Source of the DNA: Gammaproteobacteria bacterium
GTDB lineage: Bacteria; Pseudomonadota; Gammaproteobacteria; GCA-001735895
Direction: 5' to 3'
DNA length: 64,000 bases
NCBI GenBank assembly: GCA_050288105.1
Contig: JBNKDE010000013.1
Coordinates: 3,519-67,518 of the forward strand
Made by a program: the position numbers and the translations under genes. Positions 2,219 to 53,358 of this stretch are shown here, piece by piece (the stretch's first letter is position 1; each line of letters starts with the position of its first letter). Below the pieces are notes generated by a model. The model saw nothing but the letters and a program-made list of their open reading frames with translations. It was not told where the DNA came from and ran no database searches.

Positions 2219-2556
2219 ACCACCAAACTCAGCCTGTTGTGGAGCGTTTCGAAGTTTGTTGTTTCTGTTCGTGTAGAGTTTCACACGCCAAAGTAGTCTG
2301 GTCTCTGTAGCTTAGATAGTGCTGGCGTGCGAGTCCCTTTCTTTTGCCCGCCCCAAAGAAAGAGACGAAAGAAAAGGGCGCCCCACTGGAGCGGCCTGCG
2401 GCTCCCCGAAAATCGAACCATTTAGCAAGGCACCGACAGACTCGCATCCCAGCTCGACTGTCCTCAGCGCACGTCCGTGTGCGCTGACCTTACTAAATGG
2501 CCCGATTTTCGGCACTCCAGAAGGGTAGATAAAACCAGCAGTTACATTCACGTTTA
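2219..2556 (-). repeat. Structured repeat element E1, copy A, in reverse orientation relative to copy C
   Basis: Roughly 93% identical to the reverse complement of 50108-50443. It contains the hairpin cagcgcacgtccgtgtgcgctg and the long-range helix ccgaaaatcgRRccatttagtaagg / ccttgctaaatggttcgattttcgg. Confidence 0.8.
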
Positions 2557-2663
2557 GCCTTCATTACCAAAGTTAGTAAAGGTTTAGACGCGGCAGGTGA
2601 TTCGGAATTTTAGCTGTCAAACTCCATAACATAGCTGAAATAGATGAGTAATCATGTAACGGA

Positions 2664-2731: not shown

Positions 2732-3910
2732 TTAAAAACTATCGCCAGGCACCCGTACCCAGCCTTCCATTAATACTCTGGCACTGCGACTCATGGCAAC
2801 CTTGTTAACTGTCCACTTGCCATTAACTTCAGTCGCTTCTGCACCTACCTTTAAGGTGCCAGAGGGATGACCGAAAACCACCGTGTCGCGTTCACCACCA
2901 CCCGCAGCCAGGTTCACCAGGGTGCCTGGTATGGTGGCTGCAGTACCGATAGCGACTGCTGCGGTGCCCATCATCGCATGGTGTAATTTACCCATTGATA
3001 ATGCGCGTACGTTCAGATCGATATCGCCCTCGCCAATCGCTTTGCCACTGGAAGCGGTATACGATTGCGCAGGGGATACAAAAGCTACCTTGGGGGTATG
3101 CTGACGTGCGGCTGCTTCTTCAATTTTTTCAATCAGTCCCATTTTGATTGCGCCATGTGCACGGATGGTTTCAAACATCGCCAGTGCTTTTTCATCATTA
3201 TTGATCGCATCCTGCAGCTCGGTTCCGCTATAGTTGATATCCGCTGCATTCAAAAAGATGGTGGGAATGCCGGCGTTGATCAGCGTCGCTTTGAAAGTAC
3301 CCACACCAGGGACTTCAAGGTCATCTACCAGATTACCAGTCGGGAACATATCGCCTTCGCCATCAGCAGGGTCAACAAACTCAACCTTAACCTCAGCCGC
3401 CGGGAAGGTTACGCCATCCAGTTCAAAATCGCCGGTTTCCTGAACTTCTCCATTGGTCATGGGGACATGTGCAATTATTGTCTTTTTAATGTTCGCCTGC
3501 CAGATACGAACCACTGCGACACCATTTTCGGGTACACGCTCAGCATCAACCAGACCACTGCTAATAGCAAAAGAACCCACAGCAGCGGTCAGGTTGCCGC
3601 AGTTACCACTCCAGTCGACAAAAGGCTTGTCGATGGAAACCTGTCCGAACAGGTAGTCCACGTCATGATCGGGCTGACTGCTTTTGGACAGGATCACCGT
3701 CTTACTGGTACTGGAGGTTGCGCCGCCCATACCATCGGTTTGTTTGCCGTAAGGGTCAGGGCTACCGATTACGCGCAGTAATAACTTGTCGCGTGCTTCA
3801 CCCGCAACATGTGCAGCTTCGGGTAAATCACTCAACTTAAAGAAAACGCCTTTACTAGTACCGCCACGAATATAGGTAGCAGGAATCCTGATTTGAGGGA
3901 TAAATGTCAT
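2732..3910 (-). CDS. prpF: 2-methylaconitate isomerase PrpF
   Basis: 393 aa PrpF/AcnD-accessory family with a GGTSKG-containing N-terminus. It lies directly downstream of acnD. Start chosen at the internal Met (MTFIPQIRIP), because the longer ORF would read through repeat R1. Confidence 0.85.
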   Translation of the reverse strand: MTFIPQIRIPATYIRGGTSKGVFFKLSDLPEAAHVAGEARDKLLLRVIGSPDPYGKQTDGMGGATSSTSKTVILSKSSQPDHDVDYLFGQVSIDKPFVDWSGNCGNLTAAVGSFAISSGLVDAERVPENGVAVVRIWQANIKKTIIAHVPMTNGEVQETGDFELDGVTFPAAEVKVEFVDPADGEGDMFPTGNLVDDLEVPGVGTFKATLINAGIPTIFLNAADINYSGTELQDAINNDEKALAMFETIRAHGAIKMGLIEKIEEAAARQHTPKVAFVSPAQSYTASSGKAIGEGDIDLNVRALSMGKLHHAMMGTAAVAIGTAATIPGTLVNLAAGGGERDTVVFGHPSGTLKVGAEATEVNGKWTVNKVAMSRSARVLMEGWVRVPGDSF

Positions 3911-3928
3911 TGTATTAATCTCTTGTTT

Positions 3929-4000
3929 AACCACAGAGAACACGGAGTACACAGAGTAAAATATTGTTTACCATTAAATACCTCTGTGCTCTCTGTGGTT
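3929..4000. repeat. Heptamer-TIR intergenic repeat (CACAGAG family) R1, between acnD and prpF
   Basis: Left end aaccacagagaacacggagtacacagag, right end cctctgtgctctctgtggtt. The ends form an inverted repeat around a short AT-rich core. Confidence 0.8.
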
Positions 4001-4011
4001 GATATGTTTTA

Positions 4012-7377: not shown

Positions 7378-7442
7378 AAGTTAAGAATGATTCTTTATAT
7401 ATTGAGAATTTTTTGCGTTTATTAGTAGGTTTTAAAAGAAAT

Positions 7443-7576
7443 TAACCACAGAGGACACCGAGAACACGGAGAATGATTAGATAGGTTATCAGGCGCTACT
7501 TAAAATTTTATTTATCTAAGCGACTCAGATTTAGAAAAACCAGAATACCTCTGTGCTCTCCGTGTCCTCTGTGGTT
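7443..7576. repeat. Heptamer-TIR repeat R2
   Basis: Left end taaccacagaggacaccgagaacacggag, right end cctctgtgctctccgtgtcctctgtggtt. Confidence 0.85.
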
Positions 7577-7619
7577 AAATTCTGTTAACGATGGAAAAAA
7601 TGTATCCGCAAAAGAATCT

Positions 7620-8081
7620 ATGAAAATTATTGAAGCTGATTATGCAGATCTGCCACAAGTCGCTGACCTGTTTCGTGAATATCAGCAGTTAATCGGTGTT
7701 GACCTGTGTTTTCAGGGCTTTGAAGAAGAACTGGCCAGCCTGCCGGGCAAGTATGCGCCACCAGCGGGAGCTATTTTCATTGCCATTGATAACAGCGAAT
7801 TGGTTGGTTGTGTGGCGATACGGCCCATCGATCAGCAACAGGCGGAGTTAAAGCGGCTTTATGTGAAACCGGCCTGGCACGGTCAGGGGATTGGCAAGCA
7901 GTTGTTTGAAACCGCCATGTCACGCGCGCAATCGATTGGGTATGGGAGTATTGTGCTGGATACGTTGGAGTCAATGCGCAGCGCTCGGGGGTTGTATCAG
8001 GGGTATGGATTTCGGGAGATTGAAGGGTATTATCATAATCCGGATTCGACGGCTAAGTTTTATCGGTATGATTTTGGGTGA
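7620..8081 (+). CDS. GNAT family N-acetyltransferase
   Basis: 153 aa with an acetyl-CoA binding motif (RLYVKPAWHGQGIGKQL). Confidence 0.8.
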   Translation: MKIIEADYADLPQVADLFREYQQLIGVDLCFQGFEEELASLPGKYAPPAGAIFIAIDNSELVGCVAIRPIDQQQAELKRLYVKPAWHGQGIGKQLFETAMSRAQSIGYGSIVLDTLESMRSARGLYQGYGFREIEGYYHNPDSTAKFYRYDFG

Positions 8082-8180
8082 TCGTTTTTTTGTTTTTTCA
8101 TTATTGGCGTCATCACGAGTACCTGAAGGGCATAAACTCGCGTGGCAATCTTATGGATTGTTAGTAACTGCCCGAATAGT

Positions 8181-8455
8181 GGTTTCACACGCTTACGCTT
8201 TCCTTGCTTCGTAGCGCCTGACGAGTACGCGTGCGAGCCCCTTTTTTGTTTGGCCAAAAAAGAGGCGCAAAAAAGGCCACCCCACCAAGCCCTTCATCGT
8301 CAAAATAGTGCCCAGATCGCGGTCGGCTCAGACGCGGGTCCAACCGCGCTGAGCCTCAAATGGCATCCCTGCCATTTGCCCCCGATCTGAACACCATTTT
8401 GCCGCGGGCTTGAAAGGGGGAATTAAGAAAAGATTTCAAGCAAAGCTTGAAATCT
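8181..8455 (-). repeat. Structured repeat element E2, copy 1, a relative of E1; ends with perfect hairpin agatttcaagcaaagcttgaaatct at 8431-8455
   Basis: Shares with E1 the module tttcacacgc...gcgtgcgag-cccttttt / aaaaaag...ggc and a ctcag...ctgag hairpin. Homologous to 43481-43780. Confidence 0.7.
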
Positions 8456-8460
8456 TTATT

Positions 8461-8745
8461 GTGTTTTTTTCCGCCCTTATTGAGTGCCGAAAATCGAGTC
8501 ATTTTGTAGGGTCAGCGCACATGGACGTGCGCTGAGGACAGTTGAGCAGGATGCGAATCTGTCCGTGCCCTGCAAAATGGCTTGATTTTCGGGGAGCCGC
8601 AGGCCACTCAATTGGGATGTCCTTTTTTTCGTCTCTTTTTTTGGACAAGCAAAAAAAGGGACTTGCACGCCTTTTAGAAAGATACTACGAAGCAAGGACA
8701 GCAAAGGCGTGTGAAACCATAATCCGGAAAGAACAAGAAAACTGA
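8461..8745 (+). repeat. Structured repeat element E1, copy B, truncated at both ends
   Basis: Roughly 80% identical to copy C and carries compensatory substitutions in its helices. It abuts the GST stop codon. Confidence 0.8.
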
Positions 8746-8755
8746 TAAAATTAAG

Positions 8756-9358
8756 TCATCCCTCCAACATAGGAATCCACCCCGGAATCCCTTCCACCCT
8801 CTCCAACCACCTCCGAACCGCAGGATATGGAGCCAGAGAAAAATCACCCTGATCGGCTAGCATGACATAGGGATAACAGGCAATATCCGCAATCGTCGGC
8901 TGCTCTGCCGCTAGCCAGTCGTGCTGGCTTAATTGGTTTTCCATCGCTATCACGCCTGGCTTCGCATCGGCGTGGCATGCTTCGAGATTGAATGGTCGCT
9001 TGAGTACCAGAGCGGCGCGCGCGCGAGCTAAACCGTATAACAATTCATTTTCCGATACTGCAAGCCATTGCATCACACGCGCTTCGCTGAGTGCATCTTC
9101 GGGCAGCCATTGTGTGCCGCCATAGCGACGTGCCAGGTACACCAGAATGGCCATCGAATCCCACAATAAATCATCACCGTCGACTAATACCGGTAGCTGC
9201 CCGCGAGGGTTTATTTGCTTGAACTCGGCGGTTAGCGTTTCGCCTTTAGCGATGTCGATAGGGATGGTTTCATAGTCCAGCTTTAGTATCGATAACATCA
9301 GACGAATCTTGTAGCAATTTCCGGAAAGCGGGAAGTCGTATAGTTTGATGGTAGACAT
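8756..9358 (-). CDS. Glutathione S-transferase
   Basis: 200 aa with GST N- and C-domain features. Confidence 0.8.
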   Translation of the reverse strand: MSTIKLYDFPLSGNCYKIRLMLSILKLDYETIPIDIAKGETLTAEFKQINPRGQLPVLVDGDDLLWDSMAILVYLARRYGGTQWLPEDALSEARVMQWLAVSENELLYGLARARAALVLKRPFNLEACHADAKPGVIAMENQLSQHDWLAAEQPTIADIACYPYVMLADQGDFSLAPYPAVRRWLERVEGIPGWIPMLEG

Positions 9359-10752: not shown

Positions 10753-10967
10753 ATTAACCACGAAGAGCATGAAGAAAAACATTTTAACCACAGATTAGGG
10801 CAGGAAGCCCGTAAGTAGGGCAACGCAGGACGCAGTTGCCGAGGACACAGAGAACACGGAGAAGTGTGGTGTGGGATATTTTGAGGTATAAATTATCCAG
10901 TCAAACCAAGAGGTTCAATTTTAGGAAAATACAAAAACCTCTGTGCTCTCTGTGTCCTCTGTGGTTA
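10753..10967. repeat. Composite heptamer-TIR repeat R3, with embedded module-2 (agggcaggaagcccgtaagtagggcaacgcaggacgcagttgcc)
   Basis: ttaaccacgaag and ttaaccacag on the left, cctctgtgctctctgtgtcctctgtggtt on the right. Confidence 0.8.
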
Positions 10968-11056
10968 AAGAAGCGCGTTCAGGTTATTTGAAAATCAGGT
11001 TGATAGCCCAAGGTAGATTCGGCACTATCGTGATTTTCATTTCGCATGGAAGATAA

Positions 11057-15249: not shown

Positions 15250-15378
15250 GTTTCCTACAGAGTACACAGAGAACTTAGGTGCAGAATTTTTGAGGTATAA
15301 ATTATTCATTTAACACGAAGACGCTTAATGATAGGAAAATACAGAAAAACTCCGTGCTCTCCGTGTCCTCTGTGGTTT
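15250..15378. repeat. Heptamer-TIR repeat R4, left end partially truncated
   Basis: Left cctacagagtacacagagaac, right ctccgtgctctccgtgtcctctgtggttt. Confidence 0.75.
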
Positions 15379-15456
15379 AACATTTTTTAAGTTTTTTTAC
15401 CTTCGTTTGACAATTTTCCTAATGGTCGACCCATTAGTTGAGGTCAATGCAGATCT

Positions 15457-18197: not shown

Positions 18198-18418
18198 AAC
18201 AGTTTACTAGAAGGTTTCCGGTATAGTAGGTACTAGACGGATTGCTTCTAGTTCAGTCCCTTGTTTTCGATTCAGCCATACTAATCAACCGATAAAGCGA
18301 TTGTCAACGAATCAGGTCGATGGAGGAAAATGACTTTGGAACGAATGCTGCCGATTTATGTTGAGCCTGGAGTAGACTTTCTTTTTGGTTCGAATTCAAA
18401 AGTTTTCAGGGTGTTAAT

Positions 18419-18732
18419 TAGCCACCGAGAGTACGGAGCACACAGAGAGGGTTAGCGTGGTTTAATAAATTAACTGACCACGAGATAGGGCAACGCAGCA
18501 GAAACTGTCGGGTACACCTAAGGTACGAAGAAAAAATAATGTGTTTTCTCTGTGCTCTCGGTGTGCTCTGTGGTGAATAAGCTTTTTTCAGGTTACCGGG
18601 TTCTGCCGCAGCACAAGCAAGCCCCGGTAACCCACAAAGCACAACAAAGAAAACCCTTCGTAATCTTCGTGTGCTTGGCAACTGCGTCCTGCGTTGCCCT
18701 ACTTACGGGCGTCCTTGCCCTAATTCGTGGTT
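18419..18732. repeat. Heptamer-TIR repeat R5 (18419-18575) followed by a reverse-orientation module-2 copy (18655-18732)
   Basis: gccaccgagagtacggagcacacagag ... ctctgtgctctcggtgtgctctgtggtg, then ...ttggcaactgcgtcctgcgttgccctacttacgggcgtccttgccctaattcgtggttta. Confidence 0.75.
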
Positions 18733-18739
18733 TATTTAT

Positions 18740-18922
18740 TTACCGCTTATCGATAGAAACATACTCCCGGTTTTCCGGCCCGGTGTAGTTGGCGGAGGGT
18801 CGTATAATCTTGCCATCTTCACGCTGTTCGATCACATGCGCGCCCCAGCCGGAAACACGTGAGATAACAAACAAAGGGGTGAACATGTCAGTCGGTACGC
18901 CCATCTGGTTGTAGGAAAACAC
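18740..18922 (-). pseudogene. 3'-terminal remnant (last 60 codons) of a second 2-methylcitrate synthase gene (prpC')
   Basis: Its translation is identical to the C-terminal 60 aa of PrpC at 20883-22037. Nucleotide identity is about 91%, with every difference synonymous. There is no upstream gene body. Confidence 0.8.
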
Positions 18923-20466: not shown

Positions 20467-20745
20467 TTGGCGGCGCTGGACAAAATCGGTTGTCCTTGGC
20501 GTATTGTGCTTTCTACCCTCAGTCTTGTAGGAATAAGGGCTGGAGTGCGAGCCAGATTGGGTATTTGCGTAAGAAGCGAAAGATGGCAGGAAGATAATCT
20601 GTGTATTGTAGACCAGGGTCTGCCAGCGTTACCTGATGTTAAACTGGCGATCCTGTCGGGCACGAACACAGAAGAAAAGGTAGTCGAGAGATTAAGAACA
20701 GCCTTACGCGGTGCGCTAAGTCAGTCAAGTAGAAATGAATATTAA
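20467..20745 (+). pseudogene. C-terminal remnant of a LysR-family regulator gene (LysR')
   Basis: About 75% aa identity to the C-terminal ~90 residues of the LysR protein at 9876-10739. The N-terminal part is absent. Confidence 0.7.
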
Positions 20746-38886: not shown

Positions 38887-39161
38887 TAACCACGAATTAG
38901 GGCAGGGATGCCCGTAAGTAGAGCAACGCAGGAGCAGTTGCCGAGCACACGAAGGGGTTTGAGTAATGGGAAAAGAATTTTAACCACAGAGAGCACAGAG
39001 AGCACAGAGAATTATAAAAATATTCTGTAACTATTCATCTCCTGTTTTAAGAAGACTCTGGTAATTGCCTGGCAACATATCTTACATTCTTCGTGCCCTT
39101 CGTGGTTTATCAAACCAGAAACACACAAATCTTCTCTGTGTACTCTGTGCTCTCTGTGGTT
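38887..39161. repeat. Composite repeat R7: module-2 left end, CACAGAG left end, module-2 right end, CACAGAG right end (interleaved)
   Basis: ttaaccacgaattagggcagggatgcccgtaagtagagcaacgcaggagcagttgccgagcacacgaagg ... ttaaccacagagagcacagagagcacagag ... cttcgtgcccttcgtggttta ... ctctgtgtactctgtgctctctgtggtt. Confidence 0.8.
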
Positions 39162-39212
39162 CAAATTAACCAAGAGATCTTCTAAGCACACTCGGTGGTG
39201 TAACGCCACTGT

Positions 39213-43231: not shown

Positions 43232-43480
43232 CTTTCGGACGTGTTGAAAACCCTAGCTGATTAGTGATGATACCGGACGCCCCCCCTCGTTCCCATGCTC
43301 GGAAACTGCTCGGCTCAGGCATCCTGCTTCGCTCTACCACCTAAATCCCTTTAGGCGTTTTTGCGTTACTCTCGACAATTGCATCCTGCATTGTTCTACC
43401 TTCGACCATCCATGATCTCGTACCACATACGTCCCTGTAGGAGTCCGAGAGGGAATGCATATAGCATCTGACTAAGTTCT

Positions 43481-43780
43481 GATTTCACACGCTGAAAACT
43501 TTTCTCGCTCTGTAGTTAAGTCGTGCCTGCGTGCGAGTAACTTTTCAGGCATGAAAAGTCACCAAAAATGCTTTCCCAACAGTCCCTTCTTCCGTCAAAA
43601 GCACAGCCAAATCGCGGTCGGGGCAGACGCGTTCCTGACGCGACTGCCCCTAAATTCGCTTCCCTGCGAATTTACCCCGATTTGACTGCACTTTTGCCGC
43701 GGGTCTGGATGGGGTTTAAAAAACAGAGATTTCAAGCACAGCTTGAAGTCTCAAGAAACTCAAGTTTCAAGATCTGATCC
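43481..43780 (-). repeat. Structured repeat element E2, copy 2; ends with hairpin agatttcaagcacagcttgaagtct at 43727-43751
   Basis: Collinear with 8181-8455: tttcacacgc...gcgtgcgag..., cgtcaaaag...atcgcggtcggGGcagacgcg...cgcgaCTgCCcc, ttttgccgcggg. Confidence 0.7.
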
Positions 43781-43965
43781 ATGCGCCCGTTTTAACCATT
43801 TAATCGTCTGGAGAGTCTTAGACCTTTTATTTCAACGTGTATATGTTCCTGAGACTCTAATAATTCAATAATTTGCCTAAAAAGCGTGGTCCATATTAAG
43901 AAAAACCTGAATAGTTGAAATATGGTAGAATATCGCCATATTAGACCAACTTGGAGGTCTGAATC

Positions 43966-44430
43966 ATGTCGTTATCTGTATATTCTGCTGCACAAAGATT
44001 AGCGGAGAAATCCGGTTGGTCTCTGTCAAATTTAGAGATTCAGAAATTGCTGTACTTGGCGCATATGTTTCATATGGGCGAGCACGAAGAGCCTTTGGTA
44101 AATGAACATTTTGAGGCTTGGGATTACGGCCCAGTTCAACCCGATCTTTATCATAAGCTGAAAATTTACGGCTCTTCTCCAGTGAAACATATTTTCACCC
44201 GCACAAAACCATTCGATGAAGGATCTGAAACGGAAATTATCGACAAAACTGTAGACCAGCTTTCACATCGAGCGGCTGGATGGCTGGTCGCTGCTACGCA
44301 CTGGGACAAAGGCGCGTGGGCTAAATACTATGAGCCTGGCACGAAAGGAATAATTATTCCTAATTCTGAAATCCAACAGGAATATAGAGATAGAGTAGAT
44401 GCACTCAGAAGAAGACAAGCCACCATTTGA
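43966..44430 (+). CDS. Panacea-domain (DUF4065, SocA/PanA-like) putative antitoxin
   Basis: 154 aa. The conserved YLAHMFHMGEHEEPLVNEHFEAWDYGPVQPDLY region matches my recollection of the Panacea family. Preceded by ggagg. Confidence 0.6.
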   Translation: MSLSVYSAAQRLAEKSGWSLSNLEIQKLLYLAHMFHMGEHEEPLVNEHFEAWDYGPVQPDLYHKLKIYGSSPVKHIFTRTKPFDEGSETEIIDKTVDQLSHRAAGWLVAATHWDKGAWAKYYEPGTKGIIIPNSEIQQEYRDRVDALRRRQATI

Positions 44431-44743
44431 TCAACTGGACGATCTTCTTTATGAAGAACCGAGCAAGACAGATCAGCAGATATCTGCCCTTGAAAAGCAA
44501 CTAGAGTACGAACGCGATGCCAGGATGGAAGATCGATTTGTATTTATCGTGATAATAGTCCTTTTATTGGATATCGTTTTCTTTTCTGTTATGCCTACTT
44601 TCGGTGGCCCGCTAGCGCTACTAATCCTGGAACTTATAATTTTGATACCGCTGGCCCGAAAGATGGGAATGGAAGAACTTGCCGCAATATTTCATGGAGT
44701 TGTATCCCGTATGGCTGGAAGAGCAAATGATGCTGATGATTAA
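44399..44743 (+). CDS. Small two-TM membrane protein, candidate toxin partner
   Basis: 114 aa overlapping the upstream gene by 32 nt. Hydrophobic segments FVFIVIIVLLLDIVFFSV and LALLILELIILIPLA. Confidence 0.45.
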   Translation: MHSEEDKPPFDQLDDLLYEEPSKTDQQISALEKQLEYERDARMEDRFVFIVIIVLLLDIVFFSVMPTFGGPLALLILELIILIPLARKMGMEELAAIFHGVVSRMAGRANDADD

Positions 44744-44997
44744 ATTTCAAACTGAGTCACCACCGAAAAAGTTGATGTGTTCAGTAATTTACAAATACAT
44801 GATAATAATGGGCTCTGCAGAACCAAGGCGTCACTGCTGAAACATAAGGTCCATCTTTTGATGGAACAATCTCAATTTGACTTCGCTGGCCTGACCCTCC
44901 AGACTCAGGTGAATCTGAATCCACTTTTTCTCAAACACCACAAAGGAAACACAAACCTTAAACGTAATCTGTTACTACGATAAGGCTATTTATAGGC

Positions 44998-45273
44998 ATG
45001 AAATCCTCAGTTGATAAAATACTCAAGAAGCATCCTCAGCTTATCCACTCCGATAATATGAAGGTGACTTCTCATGTACAACGTGCGAGTGGCGAATGGA
45101 TTATTAATACGATCATGATTGAAGATTGCGCAGTCCCGTTTAAATACAAACGCAAAAAACGTTACAAAAATCTCACCGGAGCGAGGGTGAACTTAACCTA
45201 TTACCCACAACTTGAGTCAGTCGCCGGGATTGACTTTGAAACCATGAAGGTGGTCAGGGTCCGTATTTCCTGA
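44998..45273 (+). CDS. Hypothetical protein
   Basis: 91 aa ORF with no recognisable domain. Confidence 0.3.
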   Translation: MKSSVDKILKKHPQLIHSDNMKVTSHVQRASGEWIINTIMIEDCAVPFKYKRKKRYKNLTGARVNLTYYPQLESVAGIDFETMKVVRVRIS

Positions 45274-45538
45274 ACCGCCCGTATCAGGCGAAATACGGAA
45301 TGATCGGGTCACTAGAAATTCAAGCACTACAGGCGTGCAATTTTCTGATACGATTAGCGGCCAATTAACCTGTCTTACCATGCTTCCTTCCGTCTACCTG
45401 CTTTATGTTGATCAGAATTACCCTGTTACAAACCCTGTTTTCCAGTACCTGTAATCTACAGCCTATCCAATTCTCTGTTGGACCGACCTTGAATGGCGAA
45501 ATCTGTATTTGGTTTATTAGTAGAGGAATTTATCACCC

Positions 45539-46081
45539 ATGATTGAGGTTTTAATTCTTGCGGTTGCGCTCAGTATGGATGCCTTTGCGGTATCGATTGG
45601 GCTGGGGGCGAAACACCGGGCTAAATCCGTTTCACTGGGTCTGAGGGCGGGGTTGTACTTTGGTGTTTTTCAGGGCTTGATGCCCTTTATTGGCTATCTG
45701 GCTGGAAAAGGGGTGTTGGGCTGGATAGAGTCATATGCGCCCTGGGTGGCCTTTATACTGTTATTGTTTATTGGCGGTAAAATGATTTATGAATCCTTCG
45801 CGGAAGGCATAGAAGAAGATATCGTCGCAGTGACTCATCGGGTGTTTTTAATGCTCGCCATTGCCACCAGTATTGATGCGCTGGCGGCAGGGTTTACCCT
45901 GACCTTGCTTGATGTAAATCCTGTCACCTCGTGCCTGGTGATCGCGCTGACTACCTTTGCCTTTAGTTTTTGCGGAACACTGGTAGGCAAAAAGAGTGGA
46001 ACCTGGCTGGAAGCAAAAGCTGAGTTTCTGGGAGGGGTAGTTTTGATATTGATAGGTTTAAAAATACTGATTTTTAATTAG
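45539..46081 (+). CDS. mntP: Manganese efflux pump MntP
   Basis: [26 protein letters not shown]; two DUF204 repeats. Confidence 0.85.
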
Positions 46082-46134
46082 TGTTAACAGGTACTTAAAA
46101 AATAGATATTAACTGATTACGGAAAATTAACCTG

Positions 46135-47295
46135 ATGCTAAAAGACTTATTGTCTCCACGATATATAATTGCTGGCTTTGTGGCGATACTGATTGGCTAT
46201 ACCAGTTCAGCAGCAATCGTTTTCCAGGCTGCAATTGCTGGTGGTACCAGCCTGGATCAGGTGAGTTCCTGGTTGTGGGCATTAGGAATTGGCATGGGTA
46301 TTAGTACTATCGGCCTGTCGCTGTATTATAAACATCCTGTGCTCATTGCCTGGTCTACACCAGGTGCTGCGTTACTGGTAACCAGCCTGCCGGGCGTGGA
46401 TTTGTCGAATGCCATTGGGGCCTTTATATTTAGCTCAGTGCTAATAACCATCTGTGGTGTCACCGGCTGGTTTAACAACATCATGAAACTGGTGCCACAA
46501 AGCCTGGCGACAGCAATGCTGGCAGGTGTTTTATTGCGATTCAGTCTGGCTATTTTTCCCGCATTTAATCAGGAGTTACTCCTGGTTGGGTTGATGATCG
46601 TGGTTTATATTCTGGGAAAATGGCTGAAGTCTTCCTACACTATTCCGATGACATTTGGCACGGGTATCATCGTCGCTTTTTTGCAGGGCAAGATACAGGC
46701 TATTGAATCTGCTTTAACCATGACCACGCCAATCGTGGTTATACCGAGCTGGGATGTCTCGATTCTAATCGGTGTAGGCCTGCCACTTTTTGTGGTAACC
46801 ATGGCTTCACAAAATGTACCTGGTATAGCCGTATTACGTGCACATAACTATCAAACTCCTGCATCCCCGCTTATCGGCTGGAGTGGATTCACAGGCATCA
46901 TTATGGCCCCATTTGGAGGCTTTGCTTTCAATATGGCAGCCATCACTGCAGCGCTATGCATGGGTGAGGATGTTGATAAAGATCCGGCCAAACGATACTT
47001 CGCTACCATCTGGACAGGTGTGTTTTATATCCTGGCTGGTATTTTTGGGGCCGCAGTTGCAAGTCTGTTTGCTGCCTTTCCGGTTCAACTCGTTACTGCG
47101 ATTGCTGGTTTGGCTCTGCTTGGGACTATTGCCAACAGTTTAGGAGCAGCGCTGCAGCAGACGGAGCAACGCGAAGCTGCCATTATTACATTTATCATTA
47201 CTGCTTCAGATGGATCTTTTCTTTCCATAGGGACACCGTTCTGGGGATTGATTGTTGGATTGATGGTTTATTATTTAATGAAACATTCAACCTAA
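46135..47295 (+). CDS. benE: Benzoate/H+ symporter BenE family
   Basis: 386 aa, 12 TM, BenE-like. Confidence 0.75.
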   Translation: MLKDLLSPRYIIAGFVAILIGYTSSAAIVFQAAIAGGTSLDQVSSWLWALGIGMGISTIGLSLYYKHPVLIAWSTPGAALLVTSLPGVDLSNAIGAFIFSSVLITICGVTGWFNNIMKLVPQSLATAMLAGVLLRFSLAIFPAFNQELLLVGLMIVVYILGKWLKSSYTIPMTFGTGIIVAFLQGKIQAIESALTMTTPIVVIPSWDVSILIGVGLPLFVVTMASQNVPGIAVLRAHNYQTPASPLIGWSGFTGIIMAPFGGFAFNMAAITAALCMGEDVDKDPAKRYFATIWTGVFYILAGIFGAAVASLFAAFPVQLVTAIAGLALLGTIANSLGAALQQTEQREAAIITFIITASDGSFLSIGTPFWGLIVGLMVYYLMKHST

Positions 47296-47525
47296 AAACC
47301 GCAGTTGACCGCTATGCACATGAGCCAACTGCTTGAGTAGCATGACTATACTCATAATCACAAAGCTCACTTGTTGGGTGAAAGCGCTATGCAGCGGATT
47401 GCACATTTTTTCATGCACATAGCTGCGTTGTGAAACTGGCCAAGGGCTTGCCATTGGCGGCATTTCACGCCTTGCCCTGCACATGAAAAAAAGCACACTC
47501 CACTGCATTCAACTGCGGTTTTTAG
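47292..47525. mobile_element. MITE-like element with 14-17 bp perfect terminal inverted repeats and TA target duplication
   Basis: Left cTAaaaaccgcagttga, right tcaactgcggttttTAg. The interior carries atgcacat repeats and hairpins. The left TIR overlaps the benE stop. Confidence 0.6.
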
Positions 47526-47605
47526 GTTCAAGTAATAAAGCACAGAAATCGAGCTGATAAATTATTCAGAGTTTCCCTGATAAGTTCCGAAATATAAAAT
47601 AGCTA

Positions 47606-48130
47606 CTAATTGGGCCAGGGTCGCTGTCCTTCTGCCTCTATCCAGGCCTGCACCCACTGTGGGATTTCACCGCCCCAGTTTGGATTGCCCATCGCGTTGA
47701 CAACCTGTTCAGCGGGTAATAGCCCGCCTTTTGAGGTGACGCCAGCTTTCATGAGTGAAGAGGTGCAGATCTCACCAGCGCGATGAATCTCCTGTAAAAA
47801 GTAAAACCAGCGCTGATCGTGACATAGCATACGCGTGCTCACGGTAAAGCGATGCAGAAAAGGAATCCGTCTGCGATAGCGTACACTGGCCCCGCCGACA
47901 ACCAACCCCCAGCGGTTTTTCCGCATCAGGGGAATAAACCCAACGCGTTGTGAATAATCCCAGCGACCCAGTTCAAAGTAGACGAGCTGGCGTCCGTTGT
48001 TGAGTTCACCAAATACATCGATATCCGATAGCCCGGCTCGACATTCGATGACCGACGTATCGTCAATATTAAGTGATGGTTGGCGACGTGCCTTCCATAA
48101 AGTAGTCAAAAGTTTGAAATACGGGTACAT
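47606..48130 (-). CDS. Hotdog-fold thioesterase-like protein
   Basis: 174 aa; 4HBT_2-like by overall pattern. Tentative. Confidence 0.45.
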   Translation of the reverse strand: MYPYFKLLTTLWKARRQPSLNIDDTSVIECRAGLSDIDVFGELNNGRQLVYFELGRWDYSQRVGFIPLMRKNRWGLVVGGASVRYRRRIPFLHRFTVSTRMLCHDQRWFYFLQEIHRAGEICTSSLMKAGVTSKGGLLPAEQVVNAMGNPNWGGEIPQWVQAWIEAEGQRPWPN

Positions 48131-48227
48131 GGTTTATCTCTATACGATGTACATAACATGACAGTTATTTAAGTAGTTATAAAAATCAGCCCTTAGCTGG
48201 TTTCTATGTTGAAATTGCAGCTACCTT

Positions 48228-49016
48228 TTAGCTGTTACTCAATAGTCCCAGTCCCAATGTACGAAGCTCTTCGATTTTGTGGAAGTGAAACGTTTTATAT
48301 TTATGCGTATCGGGTTCCAGTAGCAGGATATTGTGCTTGCTATGTCGAAGACTGGTCTGGGTTTGATTAAAGATCAGCAGTCGCAACGACTTTTCGAACA
48401 TATCAAGTACCTTGGCGGTTTTAAAAAAACGCTCGGGTAGCTTGTTCTCGAAGGAGTGCTGTCCCAGAACATCGACTGCGATGATATTTTCGTGAGAGGC
48501 TTCGTTGATGCCCAGATTTTCACACAGAAACCCATCACCGTAGACATGCCCTTCAATTACCTGTTCCTTAAATATTCCGGGGATCGCCATCGTCGCCAGT
48601 ACAGCCTGTTTGATAGGAACATTGCTGGTTGCATCGAATACCTTCTTATGTCCGTCCAGCAAATTGGTTGAAATCAGTTTTAAAGGTATCAGAGTGTCGC
48701 TGATCAACCTGTCCTGGAAAATGTCATCAAAAATGCGGCTAAACTTTGTACTATCAATTACTGAATTACCACTCCATGAAAATTTGACCCAGTTGAATAC
48801 ACCAGCAAGGCTTTTGAGCTTTTCATAGATTTCCTGCTCTTTCATCCCGATTGCCATACAGGCACCAATGATACCCCCCATGCTGGTGCCAATGATTTCG
48901 TGTGGTAGGGCGGACTGTTGTTCAAGGTCATGTATAACACCCAGATGTGCAATGCCCAGCGCGCCGCCGCCGGAAAGTACCAGTGAGAATGGTTCGGTTT
49001 TAAATTGAAAGTTCAT
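48228..49016 (-). CDS. Patatin-like phospholipase
   Basis: GGGALGIAHLG oxyanion motif and GTSMGG (GxSxG). Confidence 0.85.
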   Translation of the reverse strand: MNFQFKTEPFSLVLSGGGALGIAHLGVIHDLEQQSALPHEIIGTSMGGIIGACMAIGMKEQEIYEKLKSLAGVFNWVKFSWSGNSVIDSTKFSRIFDDIFQDRLISDTLIPLKLISTNLLDGHKKVFDATSNVPIKQAVLATMAIPGIFKEQVIEGHVYGDGFLCENLGINEASHENIIAVDVLGQHSFENKLPERFFKTAKVLDMFEKSLRLLIFNQTQTSLRHSKHNILLLEPDTHKYKTFHFHKIEELRTLGLGLLSNS

Positions 49017-49461
49017 GTCCTTGTCTATTTGTCCACTGATTATTCTGTGACCAGAGGGGTCGGGGTATCAAAACATAAAAATATAAAAACCAGGCTATCT
49101 TAGCCTGAAGTCGAAAAAAATTCACCCGCATAAGGTATGAACATAGTGCATTTGAAGGCCTGGCCAGGTTTAGGCCGTATTCAGATTATGAGCATATGCA
49201 GGGAGTCTGATTGACGGCCCCTTGAGTTCATTGTAACGTCAGGTAGTGATAAGATGTCTGATGTTTGCAGGTAAATAAAAGCTTTCGCAGCATCACAGGA
49301 TGTTAAAGCGCGGCTATCGCCTGTTTCAATTCGTCACTTCTATGCCCTGCAGGAACATTTGAAGTGACTGGCATAAGTGGTAAAAATAGTTAACCAATCC
49401 CATTCTGATTGAGGCATACCAATAAAGGAAAAATAATGAGTCACAAGCGTAAGGCAAGTTT

Positions 49462-50079
49462 ATGGGGATAGTAGAAATTATTTCCCTATGTTTGATCATG
49501 CTCATCGGTGCATCGATTCCGAGCTCAAGCGTTGTGCTCGTGGTTGCGCGCTCGTTAACTCATGGTATACCCAATGGAATTTCTGCCTCTCTGGGTATCG
49601 TGTGTGGTGATGTGATATTTATTTTACTGGTGATTTACGGCTTATCTGAAATTGCAGAATCCATGGGCTGGTTATTTCTGCTAATTAAGTACCTTGGTGC
49701 GAGCTATCTAATCTGGTTGGGTGTTACGCTGCTATTCTCAAAGTCAACAGTAATAGCCGTCGAGAAAAATACCCAAAAAGGAGATTTAGCCACCAGTTTT
49801 GTTGCAGGTTTATTGTTAACGCTGGGTGATGTCAAAGCAATTTTCTTTTATATCAGCCTGTTTCCAGCGTTTATTGATCCAGCAAAACTCTCTGCCATAG
49901 ATGTCGCTGTGGTATTGATCATTGATATCTTCCTGGTTGGTGGGATTAAAATATTTTATGCATACTCAGCTAAAAAAGTTGCTTCACTTTCCAGTAAACA
50001 TCGTTTGCAAAAAGGCACAAAAAAACTGGCGGGTGGTTTAATGGTTGGTGCTGGTGGCTATTTAATGGTAAAGGCTTAA
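49462..50079 (+). CDS. LysE/RhtB-family translocator
   Basis: 205 aa, 6 TM. Confidence 0.6.
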   Translation: MGIVEIISLCLIMLIGASIPSSSVVLVVARSLTHGIPNGISASLGIVCGDVIFILLVIYGLSEIAESMGWLFLLIKYLGASYLIWLGVTLLFSKSTVIAVEKNTQKGDLATSFVAGLLLTLGDVKAIFFYISLFPAFIDPAKLSAIDVAVVLIIDIFLVGGIKIFYAYSAKKVASLSSKHRLQKGTKKLAGGLMVGAGGYLMVKA

Positions 50080-50107
50080 CGAGTCAGCGCTTAAAACAAT
50101 TAAAGCG

Positions 50108-50443
50108 AAACGTGAATGCAACTTTTGGTTTTATCTCCCCTTCTGGAGTGCCGAAAATGGGGCCATTTAGTAAGGTCAGCGCACAGGGACGTGCGCTGAG
50201 GACAGTCGAGCACGGATGCGAGTCTGTCCGTGCCTTGCTAAATGGTTCGATTTTCGGGAAGCCGCAGGCCGCTCCAGTGGGGCGCCCTTTTCTTTCGTCT
50301 CTTTCTTTTGGGCGAGCAAAAGAAAGGGACTCGCACGCCAGCCAGGAAGATACTACAAAGCCAGGAAAGCTAAGGCGTGTGAAATTCTACACGATCAGAA
50401 ACAACAAACTTCAAAACGCTCCACAACAGGCTGAGTTTGGTGG
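50108..50443 (+). repeat. Structured repeat element E1, copy C (most complete)
   Basis: Helices: 50151-50175 pairs with 50233-50258; hairpin 50176-50199; hairpin gtctctttcttttg/caaaagaaagggac at 50297-50330. Confidence 0.8.
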
Positions 50444-53166: not shown

Positions 53167-53217
53167 TATTTTTATCATACTTAAGATTGTGCTGATCTAC
53201 AGACTTTAAAGAGAATA

Positions 53218-53358
53218 TTCACCACCGAGGACACAGAGTTCACGGAGGTTAAAAGCTCAATTTTAAATTCAGAAGGCTTGTGCAATATTGAAACGTGAAT
53301 TCAATAAAATAAGAATAATAATCAGGTAAATGATTTTCTCAGTGAACTCTGTGGTGAT
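53218..53358. repeat. Heptamer-TIR repeat R8
   Basis: Left ttcaccaccgaggacacagagttcacggagg, right ctcagtgaactctgtggtgat. Confidence 0.75.

Follow-up and report, generated by a model that had tools for sequence, protein, structure and literature searches.

Two sister core types of a dispersed mosaic repeat family in Gammaproteobacteria, with conserved GGA hairpin loops and kinship to the orphan motif TwoAYGGAY

The 64,000-nucleotide stretch of contig JBNKDE010000013.1 analyzed here (positions 3,519 to 67,518 of the forward strand; assembly GCA_050288105.1, Gammaproteobacteria bacterium), which we call the window, contains two copies of a structured element, E2, and three copies of a related element, E1. 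E2 is a real non-coding feature that is strongly selected for structure, and E2 and E1 are two sister core types of a dispersed mosaic family of non-coding repeats. Judging from sequence and model comparisons, E2 appears to be a previously unrecognized sister of the orphan motif TwoAYGGAY (RF01731) that the Rfam model does not detect, and the conserved hairpin loops of both cores look like docking sites for an RNA-binding protein of the CsrA type.

Both E2 copies proved real, with 78% identity over 348 aligned columns, and the limits assigned to them in an earlier note on this DNA were revised to about 8161-8455 and about 43462-43751; the former right-hand limit of the second copy, 43780, lies some 30 nucleotides (nt) too far right because similarity ends past a hairpin at 43751. 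Each core consists of a long, covarying closing helix of 19-26 bp (by count of pairs, 23 or more in E2 and about 30 in E1) that encloses two adjacent hairpins. The compensatory change by which the two copies had been said to differ (ggCTcag...ctgAGcc versus ggGGcag...ctgCCcc) is real and is one of many. A structural alignment of 20 E2 cores revealed double changes in 18 of 40 pairs, compared with 10.4 in shuffles, and pairing in 97.1% of cells, compared with 86.1% in shuffles, a level that none of 500 shuffles equaled. Pairing dropped to 35-40% when partners were slid. Double changes were also found in 21 of 54 pairs of the E1 cores. Several 1-nt indels separate the two E2 copies, so that no reading frame is kept, which rules out a small protein or toxin gene; no tRNA or tmRNA origin was found for the elements.

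The structure is selected on one strand, which we call the folded strand. On the same helices, the ratio of G·U to A·C cells was 68:4 in E2 and 81:4 in E1 when read on this strand, and pairing reached 97.1% against 89.1% on the complement in E2 and 96.7% against 88.3% in E1. Minimum free energy was lower on the folded strand in all 20 E2 cores (-72.8 versus -64.5 kcal/mol), in all 17 E1 cores (-79.6 versus -64.1 kcal/mol) and in 58 of 66 whole elements, and the RNAalifold energies showed the same asymmetry (-58.1 versus -39.1 kcal/mol for E2 and -73.5 versus -46.4 kcal/mol for E1). Furthermore, there are numerous columns with one-sided changes that are paired only on the folded strand (e.g., UG 8, UA 6, CG 6), commonly from U-A to U-G or from C-G to U-G. 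The folded strand is the minus strand for both E2 copies (E2_1 and E2_2) and for E1 copy A, and the plus strand for E1 copies B and C. The opposite strand, on which the end module M1 described below is read first, was initially favored by gene co-orientation and by a first count of G·U pairs, a choice overturned by folding both strands and by the same-helix counts. The two E2 copies have folding z-scores of -9.9 and -8.1 on that M1-first strand.

Conservation in the cores centers on the hairpin loops. At least two GGA loops were present in 26 of 30 E2 cores and in 15 of 16 E1 cores, at a spacing of 26-28 nt, and the loop GGA was near-invariant while the stems covaried. Typical loops of the folded strand are CAGGGAUG, CAUGGAUG, GGUUGGACC and ACAUGGACGU. 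The consensus for CsrA obtained by systematic evolution of ligands by exponential enrichment (SELEX) is RUACARGGAUGU and that of RsmE is A/U-CANGGANG-U/A (PMC6849547), with which loops ACAUGGACGU, CAUGGAUG and CAGGGAUG agree. The motif CANGGANG occurred 1.0 times per element on the folded strand, 0.23 times on the other strand and 0.10 times in background, a ten-fold enrichment, and 8 of its 31 matches in the window fell inside the five elements, every one of them on the folded strand. Paired sites at such spacing are within reach of a CsrA dimer. Kissing between GGA loops in the cores and UCC loops in inverted modules was discarded as a conserved interaction; the pairing is possible, with no consistent co-variation seen by eye in several copies.

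The family is built from modules. As the earlier note had suspected, E2 and E1 share parts: an end module of about 100 nt, composed of a leader, M1 and M2, occurs in all five window elements, and the two are akin in their cores as well. M1 follows the pattern TTTCACACGC (also written GGTTTCACACGC)-N18/19-GTAG-N13/14-GCGTGCRAG, which matches the window five times against 0 expected from shuffles, and adjoins the A/T hairpin M2; the leader, with consensus TAGCAACTnnCCGGATTAT, is kept in 58 non-redundant copies from about 22 nt before GTTTCAC. Read from M1, the modules are optional and their order is fixed: a two-hairpin insert within the M2 loop, a module of about 71 nt (M-X), the E2 core (with an extra 48-nt insert in one loop of some), a second M-X, the E1 core, a spacer rich in A, the palindrome, and one further module. 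E2 and E1 cores stand in series within one element in L039 and L046, and small modules are nested in the loops of others. M-X has the orientation of M1 in 26 cases and is inverted in 9, both forms occurring together in L003, L010 and L031. The palindrome type found at the E2/E1 junction recurs beside many copies, and its stem covaries. To the left of E2 copy 2, additional family modules reach to about 43309, and segment 43365-43537 resembles L005, L008 and L013; the two extra hairpins in this region, read by eye from the sequence, match CANGGANG on the minus strand, at 43407 and 43430. Overall, the fixed order of optional modules, the two-way use of M-X, and the differing module sets at orthologous sites support the earlier description of modular, recombining structured repeats.

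Two smaller components accompany the elements. A module GCTCGGCTC(n)GGCATCCTGCTTCGCTCTA(y)CACCTAAATCCCTTTAGGCG lies near or inside some of them (window 43309-43357, L020, L053, L056 and L017). A hairpin GTCATTGCGAGCG(nn)AGCGCGGCAATC with a T-rich tail adjoins the outer side of the leader in many elements, and some pairs have it at both ends (e.g., L028 at about 1095-1125, both ends of L037, and L041 at about 3640-3670, with a remnant at 8140-8152 of the window); it may be the terminator of the upstream gene or another module.

The distribution of the family was established by scanning the M1 pattern over 185,579 species genomes. The pattern gave 67 matches in 58 loci outside the window, all within eight related metagenome-assembled genomes (MAGs). 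The total amounts to 72 anchored copies in nine assemblies, with up to 23 in one MAG. Seven of the eight MAGs are labeled 'Gammaproteobacteria bacterium' and the eighth Puniceicoccaceae; in the latter, one stretch agrees with L013 at 98.6-100% across the two copies that were compared. The copies are intergenic. Their median identity is 81% within a genome and 79% between genomes, and the best long matches within a genome do not exceed 89%, so that near-identical copies are absent. Plasmid and phage collections gave no match, leaving a plasmid or phage origin unsupported, and the E2-specific pattern matched just 2 metagenome contigs; wide environmental spread was not seen. A public contig, JBNKCB010000010.1 (GCA_050287525.1), stops at about position 2437, in E1 copy A, where the window goes on to position 1; the repeat probably broke that assembly.

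TwoAYGGAY was described as two AYGGAY loops closed by a P1 stem of up to 24 base pairs (bp), with representatives in the human gut, Clostridia, and Gammaproteobacteria, and 7 of the copies in its original alignment come from Psychromonas ingrahamii (Weinberg et al. 2010, PMC2864571). CsrA binding by this motif has been proposed from motif matches (PMC4333381). The elements share with it two adjacent hairpin loops of the A-Y-G-G-A-Y type, a long P1 (present in both E2 and E1), the same strand, and a multi-copy presence in a gammaproteobacterium. In Rfam scans of short stretches (scans of the whole window missed all matches owing to speed filters), E1 copy B scored 44.0 bits and the E1 core of L037 scored 47.0 bits against a gathering score of 43 bits, both on the folded strand, and no match was returned for E2_1 or for the E2 core of L037. 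Loops of the E1 cores fit the AYGGAY type in 15 of 16 cases (AUGGAC, ACGGAC, AGGGAC, AUGGAU, and (C)AGGAU). Those of E2 fit in part (AGGGAU/AUGGAU and UUGGAC/CUGGAA); unlike TwoAYGGAY, E2 presents loops CAGGGAUG and GUUGGAC or UCUGGAA, which are not AYGGAY. A covariance model built from 20 E2 cores (R1) found 33 E2 cores at 70-161 bits, the lowest-scoring one being cut at the end of its locus, and cross-matched 16 E1 cores over the full length of the model at 31-55 bits (E 2e-6 to 2e-13). Because of the Rfam scores and these cross-matches, we regard E1 as a probable peripheral member of TwoAYGGAY and E2 as a sister design.

The flanks of known TwoAYGGAY copies strengthen this kinship. In the copies read, the 3' flanks of the Psychromonas ingrahamii motifs contain GGUUACUUUUCUUUUGCUGUUGAAAGAAAAGUAACACGCC or a close variant, which corresponds, in the same sense, to the M2 hairpin and the beginning of M1 (blastn E 1e-5), and a hairpin with the GCUGUUGA loop of M2 flanks these copies. 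Tandem repeats of further modules (...CACGCCGUCAGGGCGGAAGACCAAC...CAAGCGAAAGCCUACAA...) are also present in the TwoAYGGAY flanks of NC_008709, the Psychromonas ingrahamii genome (PMC2864571 supplement), and a distinct version of the mosaic family seems to exist in this organism. The genome paper of Psychromonas ingrahamii makes no mention of such repeats, and the literature on its repeats otherwise gave no relevant result. In contrast to TwoAYGGAY as described, the motif here forms a single module within a mosaic element of 250-450 nt that also contains the shared end module; neither this larger architecture nor the recurrent composite of E1 and E2 appears in the original description of the motif (PMC2864571, main text and supplement), in PMC4333381, or in the genome paper.

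This composite is exemplified at the locus from which E2 was first noticed. E2_1 is indeed followed directly by E1 copy B (8459-8740) in the opposite orientation, and the hairpin reported at their junction is present and longer than the 11 bp stated, with 13 bp at 8429-8457. The glutathione S-transferase (GST) gene on one flank carries the expected Pfam domains (8756-9358, minus strand), and the other flank is occupied by a GNAT acetyltransferase gene (7620-8081, plus strand). The idea of a convergent pair of small RNAs (sRNAs) was not supported in the form given: the folded strands, minus for E2_1 and plus for E1 copy B, point away from the central palindrome, and no promoter was found. The folded strand is opposite to the strand originally read in each element, and the pair is therefore back-to-back, not convergent. 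All 8 adjacent core pairs of the family consist of one E1 and one E2 with their 5' ends facing, separated mostly by 26-118 nt and in most cases by 26-44 nt; this layout is not peculiar to the GST locus, and the E2-palindrome-E1 unit is consequently a recurrent composite. Arms 8172-8274 and 8625-8727 (103 nt) are 72% complementary. These M1/M2 arms allow the whole 580-nt unit to fold as one giant hairpin on either strand, at about -300 kcal/mol and with z-scores of -18 and -16 on the two strands. The palindrome at 8429-8457 has the properties of an intrinsic terminator, its stem having 13 pairs and each strand a T-rich tail. The T-run after the palindrome is inconsistent in the family as a whole, and a hairpin with a T-run lies past the element in 11 of 63 cases, compared with 9 of 70 in a control region. 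A terminator was therefore rejected as a defining feature, being not enriched and occurring independently of neighbor orientation.

In 50 of 66 cases, the M1-side neighbor is a gene directed toward the element, often from less than 100 nt away, and convergent intergenic sites exceed divergent ones by 21 to 7. A role as leader or riboswitch of the downstream gene was ruled out, since downstream genes are co-oriented just about half the time, as was a partner protein encoded nearby, the 148 neighboring open reading frames (ORFs) matching 182 Pfam families of which none recurs in more than 3 ORFs. Module sets differ among the orthologous sites of different genomes. At the GNAT locus, L041 has a different element pair with an extra GNAT gene in between, L064 and L065 have a decayed E1-type remnant, and L062 has nothing; gene order breaks just past GNAT in all of them. 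Similarly, elements part different ORFs between a DUF2061-like gene (named from sequence alone, without a domain scan) and an AI-2E-type permease gene in L013 (400-5560), L028 (1064-2927) and L037 (2645-4165), and this locus is therefore a variable island bounded by repeats. Its contents are one DUF2971-like ORF in one case, a 343-amino-acid ORF (tentatively helix-turn-helix or ATPase-like, by eye) with three small ORFs in another, and none in the third.

We propose, with a probability of about 40% for the full statement including its mechanism, that the family is a dispersed mosaic repeat of the TwoAYGGAY class whose cores act as a two-site GGA-loop clamp for a CsrA-type protein. Each element is a chain of optional hairpin modules with an M1/M2 anchor at one end and often a palindrome at the other, the core being under selection to fold on one strand. 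The folded molecule would be RNA, each core would offer a clamp to a dimeric GGA-loop-binding protein, most likely of the CsrA/RsmA type, and the elements would titrate or recruit that protein. The family may have spread and been reshuffled in the manner of REP, BIME, BOX, or miniature inverted-repeat transposable element (MITE) repeats, with the unit at the GNAT/GST junction as one presumed recurrent composite. We know of no experimental test of CsrA binding by TwoAYGGAY. The Csr/Rsm sRNAs (CsrB, CsrC, RsmY, RsmZ) belong to Rfam clan CL00106, in which TwoAYGGAY is included. Like these sponges, the elements contain several hairpins presenting GGA in A(N)GGA or CANGGANG loops. In some copies, the folded strand lies right after a co-oriented gene (E1 copy C, 19 nt past LysE, and the E1 of L041, at the stop codon of the extra GNAT gene). 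Known Csr/Rsm sponges are encoded by 1-5 genes per genome, each with its own GacA/UvrY-dependent promoter and terminator. The elements differ from them in their dozens of copies, their long closing helix, and the placement of some modules on the opposite strand, and they do not look like independent genes, showing no sigma-70-like promoter and no 3' terminator (no formal GacA-box search was made).

Several observations weigh against this proposal. Dozens of copies per genome are unlike any known Csr/Rsm sponge RNA, the GGA loops of M-X lie on the strand opposite to the cores in 26 of 35 cases, and membership in TwoAYGGAY is marginal, with one of three tested E1 cores (E1 copy C) giving no match at E<=1. 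No sigma-70-like promoter was found from which the folded strand could be transcribed, and in most pairs the cores are separated by 26-44 nt, which leave no room for two promoters. Likewise, the M1 end of the folded strand showed no hairpin with a U-run that could serve as terminator; a terminator-like palindrome with a U-run occurs instead 5' of the cores (31 of 62 on the folded strand, 18 of 62 on the other), where it would block the entry of RNA synthesis rather than end it. Among copies whose two neighbors share one direction, those with an antisense folded strand outnumber the others by 19 to 5. The decay seen in L064 suggests that individual copies are dispensable. Finally, csrA was not encountered in the sequence examined, which covers part of the genome only.

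The main and serious rival to an RNA clamp is a role as single-stranded DNA, which we consider possible. The hairpins would be recognized in this form by a strand-specific, trans-acting enzyme, such as a transposase of the HUH/RAYT type or an integron-like tyrosine recombinase, with the GGA loops as contacts, and the family would be a mobile or recombinogenic repeat similar to REP, REPIN, or MITE repeats. Structure points to one strand and context partly to the other, and such a role would reconcile both: the transcription signals misfit an RNA made from the folded strand, and G·T wobbles are tolerated in DNA hairpins, so that the strand asymmetry is compatible with DNA. The inverted arms of about 103 nt with their giant hairpin on either strand, the use of M-X in both orientations, the nesting of modules in loops, the synteny breaks at elements, and the differing cargo ORFs at one locus in three genomes also fit it, as does a folded strand antisense to the preceding gene, a feature of integron attC sites. 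Indeed, the elements recall attC in folding strand-specifically after a gene and antisense to it, in keeping structure while sequence varies, and in their variable cargo. The attC core-site consensus is GTTRRRY/RYYYAAC. The element ends GTGAAAC/GTTTCAC misfit this consensus, no integrase or attI was found, and the elements greatly exceed attC sites in size, lie scattered, and occur in both orientations. In addition, no transposase, integrase, or RAYT turned up in the window or among the 148 neighboring ORFs, for which the 25 most frequent Pfam families were listed. No direct repeat indicative of target-site duplication flanks five pairs, the exact ends of which are uncertain, and the absence of near-identical copies (median 81%, best at most 89%) gives no hint of recent movement. 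Element orientation (3 minus and 2 plus in the window, on a uniformly G-skewed stretch) does not follow the replication strand, and the match of the loops to the CsrA/RsmE consensus is not predicted by a DNA role.

In common with MITEs, the E2-palindrome-E1 unit, of about 580 nt, is non-coding, has imperfect inverted ends of about 100 nt, and occurs at several loci. However, no target-site duplication, related transposase-bearing element, or near-identical copy was seen, and most copies are single 'halves' with one end, the single elements lacking inverted ends. A composite transposon at 43483-50384 was rejected, its would-be cargo consisting of ordinary genes (MntP, BenE, patatin, and LysE) without a transposase. 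Guide RNAs of IscB/TnpB systems (HEARO and relatives) were also set aside: there was no Rfam match, the flank of the scaffold is conserved and not variable, and no nuclease gene lies nearby.

A bolder form of the CsrA-type clamp proposal, which we find doubtful, would treat the whole family as a distributed sponge. Dozens to hundreds of intergenic two-GGA clamps for a CsrA-family dimer, spreading and reshuffling like mobile repeats, would buffer or locally wire global post-transcriptional control in place of one or two dedicated sRNAs, with E1 and E2 as two clamp designs kept as a back-to-back pair.

It is unlikely, although the context of the copies offers some reasons, that the elements are transcribed M1-first as 3' untranslated tails, which would stabilize or terminate transcripts in the manner of REP/BIME and BOX, the palindrome closing the transcript and serving both convergent genes at the GNAT/GST locus. 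The inward-pointing gene on the M1 side (50 of 66), the excess of convergent sites (21 versus 7), the terminator-like junction palindrome on both strands, and the strong structure of the M1-first strand itself (z-scores of -9.9 and -8.1) are in its favor. Against it, A·C mismatches in the helices number 68 to 81 when read on that strand, with G·U pairs numbering 4, and the strand is the less stable one in all cores tested; hairpins with a T-run show no enrichment past the element (11 of 63 versus 9 of 70; 18 of 62), and many copies, as read from the sequences, are parted from the upstream gene by a hairpin with a T-rich tail that would be expected to stop the transcript first. The likeness to BOX of Streptococcus pneumoniae and to BIME/REP of enterobacteria is general: these too are short intergenic mosaics of structured non-coding modules, in many diverged copies and often between convergent genes. 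They differ in that no sequence relation exists, and the modules described here are larger, with a multi-helix core and conserved loop sequence, and no RAYT-type partner turned up. Moreover, the invariant GTAG of M1, which the search pattern requires, is not located beside a simple palindrome as the REP/RAYT comparison would have it.

We think it quite improbable that the copies are decaying, functionless relics of an old expansion whose covariation reflects a few ancestral subfamilies. Copies are about 80% alike, one orthologous site holds a decayed remnant, and subfamilies are visible in the alignments, yet 97% pairing persists despite about 20% divergence, one-sided changes preserve pairing on one strand only, the loop GGA stays nearly invariant amid changing stems, and slid partners reach only 35-40%. 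Lastly, E2_1 and E1 copy B are very unlikely to be two convergent sRNAs with UCC-rich loops acting in trans (e.g., on an anti-Shine-Dalgarno principle): some sRNAs do have C-rich seed loops, the loops on that strand read UCCC, GUCCA, and UUCCUGA, and the shared palindrome could terminate both, but the strand evidence is opposed, no promoters were found, and the dozens of diverged copies per genome have loops that vary except for GGA/UCC.

The coordinates of the elements and their parts are collected in Table 1.

Table 1. Positions of E2 and E1 copies and of their modules in the window. Strand is that of the fold; R1 is the covariance model of E2 cores.
Feature	Position	Strand	Remarks
E2_1 outer leader	8161-8180	-	Plus-strand reading TTAGTAACTGCCCGAATAGT; 3' end of folded strand; adjoins 3' end of GNAT gene
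E2_1 module M1	8181-8237	-	GGTTTCACACGC...GTAG...GCGTGCGAG; end module common to all E1/E2 copies
E2_1 module M2	8238-8279	-	A/T-rich hairpin; stem covaries among copies
E2_1 core	8285-8424	-	Closing helix 8301-8322 / 8380-8401 enclosing two hairpins; R1 158.5 bits
E2_1 hairpin A	8357-8378	-	Minus-strand loop CAGGGAUG; CANGGANG match at 8364-8371 (minus)
E2_1 hairpin B	8325-8355	-	Minus-strand loop GGUUGGACC; stem is the site of the compensatory change reported earlier
Palindrome between E2_1 and E1 copy B	8429-8457		13 bp, AAAGATTTCAAGC AAA GCTTGAAATCTTT; terminator-like on both strands
E1 copy B, whole	8459-8740	+	Inverted relative to E2_1
E1 copy B core	8462-8622	+	Loops ACAUGGACGU and GCAGGAUGC; TwoAYGGAY 44.0 bits at 8480-8599; R1 53.5 bits; covariation
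E1 copy B M2, M1 and leader	8625-8740	+	Inverted counterpart of 8161-8279; adjoins 3' end of GST gene
E2 copy 2	43462-43751	-	Leader 43462-43480, M1 43481-43537, M2 43538-43575
E2 copy 2 core	43580-43719	-	R1 143.4 bits
E2 copy 2 palindrome	~43727-43751	-	
Two extra small CANGGANG-loop hairpins	43400-43440	-	ACAGGGACGU and UCAUGGAUGG; outside M1 end of E2 copy 2
E1 copy A	2270-2565	-	Core 2395-2532
E1 copy C	50098-50395	+	Core 50131-50268; begins 19 nt past LysE stop codon

E1 copies A and C, 47.5 kb apart, together make up an inverted repeat of about 345 nt (2220-2565 / 50098-50443), with 94% identity over 245 nt and 87% over a further 91 nt. This repeat runs about 90 nt past M1 into a module absent from other copies, and the segment between could possibly be inverted through it. 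Beyond E2 copy 2 lie a gene with a SocA/Panacea domain (antitoxin-like; 43966-44430) and two small unannotated ORFs, in a stretch of lower GC. The window also harbors other repeats. An unrelated second family, TTAACCACAGAG(nn)CAC(n)GAG(nn)CACAGAG, which contains a sub-repeat of 9 nt, was found at 3917-4011, 7432-7588, 10768-10969, 15350-15380, 18408-18577, 20732-20876, 38970-39164, and 53208-53247, mostly as inverted doublets 80-120 nt apart (e.g., 7432-7471 / 7549-7588, 88% complementary) in a REPIN-like layout. A third repeat, GGAAGCCCGTAAGTAGGGCAACGCAGGA..., adjoins the CACAGAG repeats at 10802-10861, 18656-18732, and 38888-38933, in both orientations and with copies 87-93% alike, and a 176-nt direct repeat with 91% identity (18741-18916 / 20884-21059) has its copies 2.1 kb apart.

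The family gives a context to TwoAYGGAY, which has been without an assigned function since 2010: in Gammaproteobacteria the motif belongs, as a single module, to a larger mosaic repeat. Since the Rfam model misses E2, this core would add a new variant to the class. The repeats end the contigs of MAGs and mark differences in gene order between related genomes. About 50 natural variants with covarying stems and fixed GGA loops are well suited to testing the idea of CsrA binding and, if this binding were true, the family would represent protein-binding RNA hairpins that multiply like selfish DNA.

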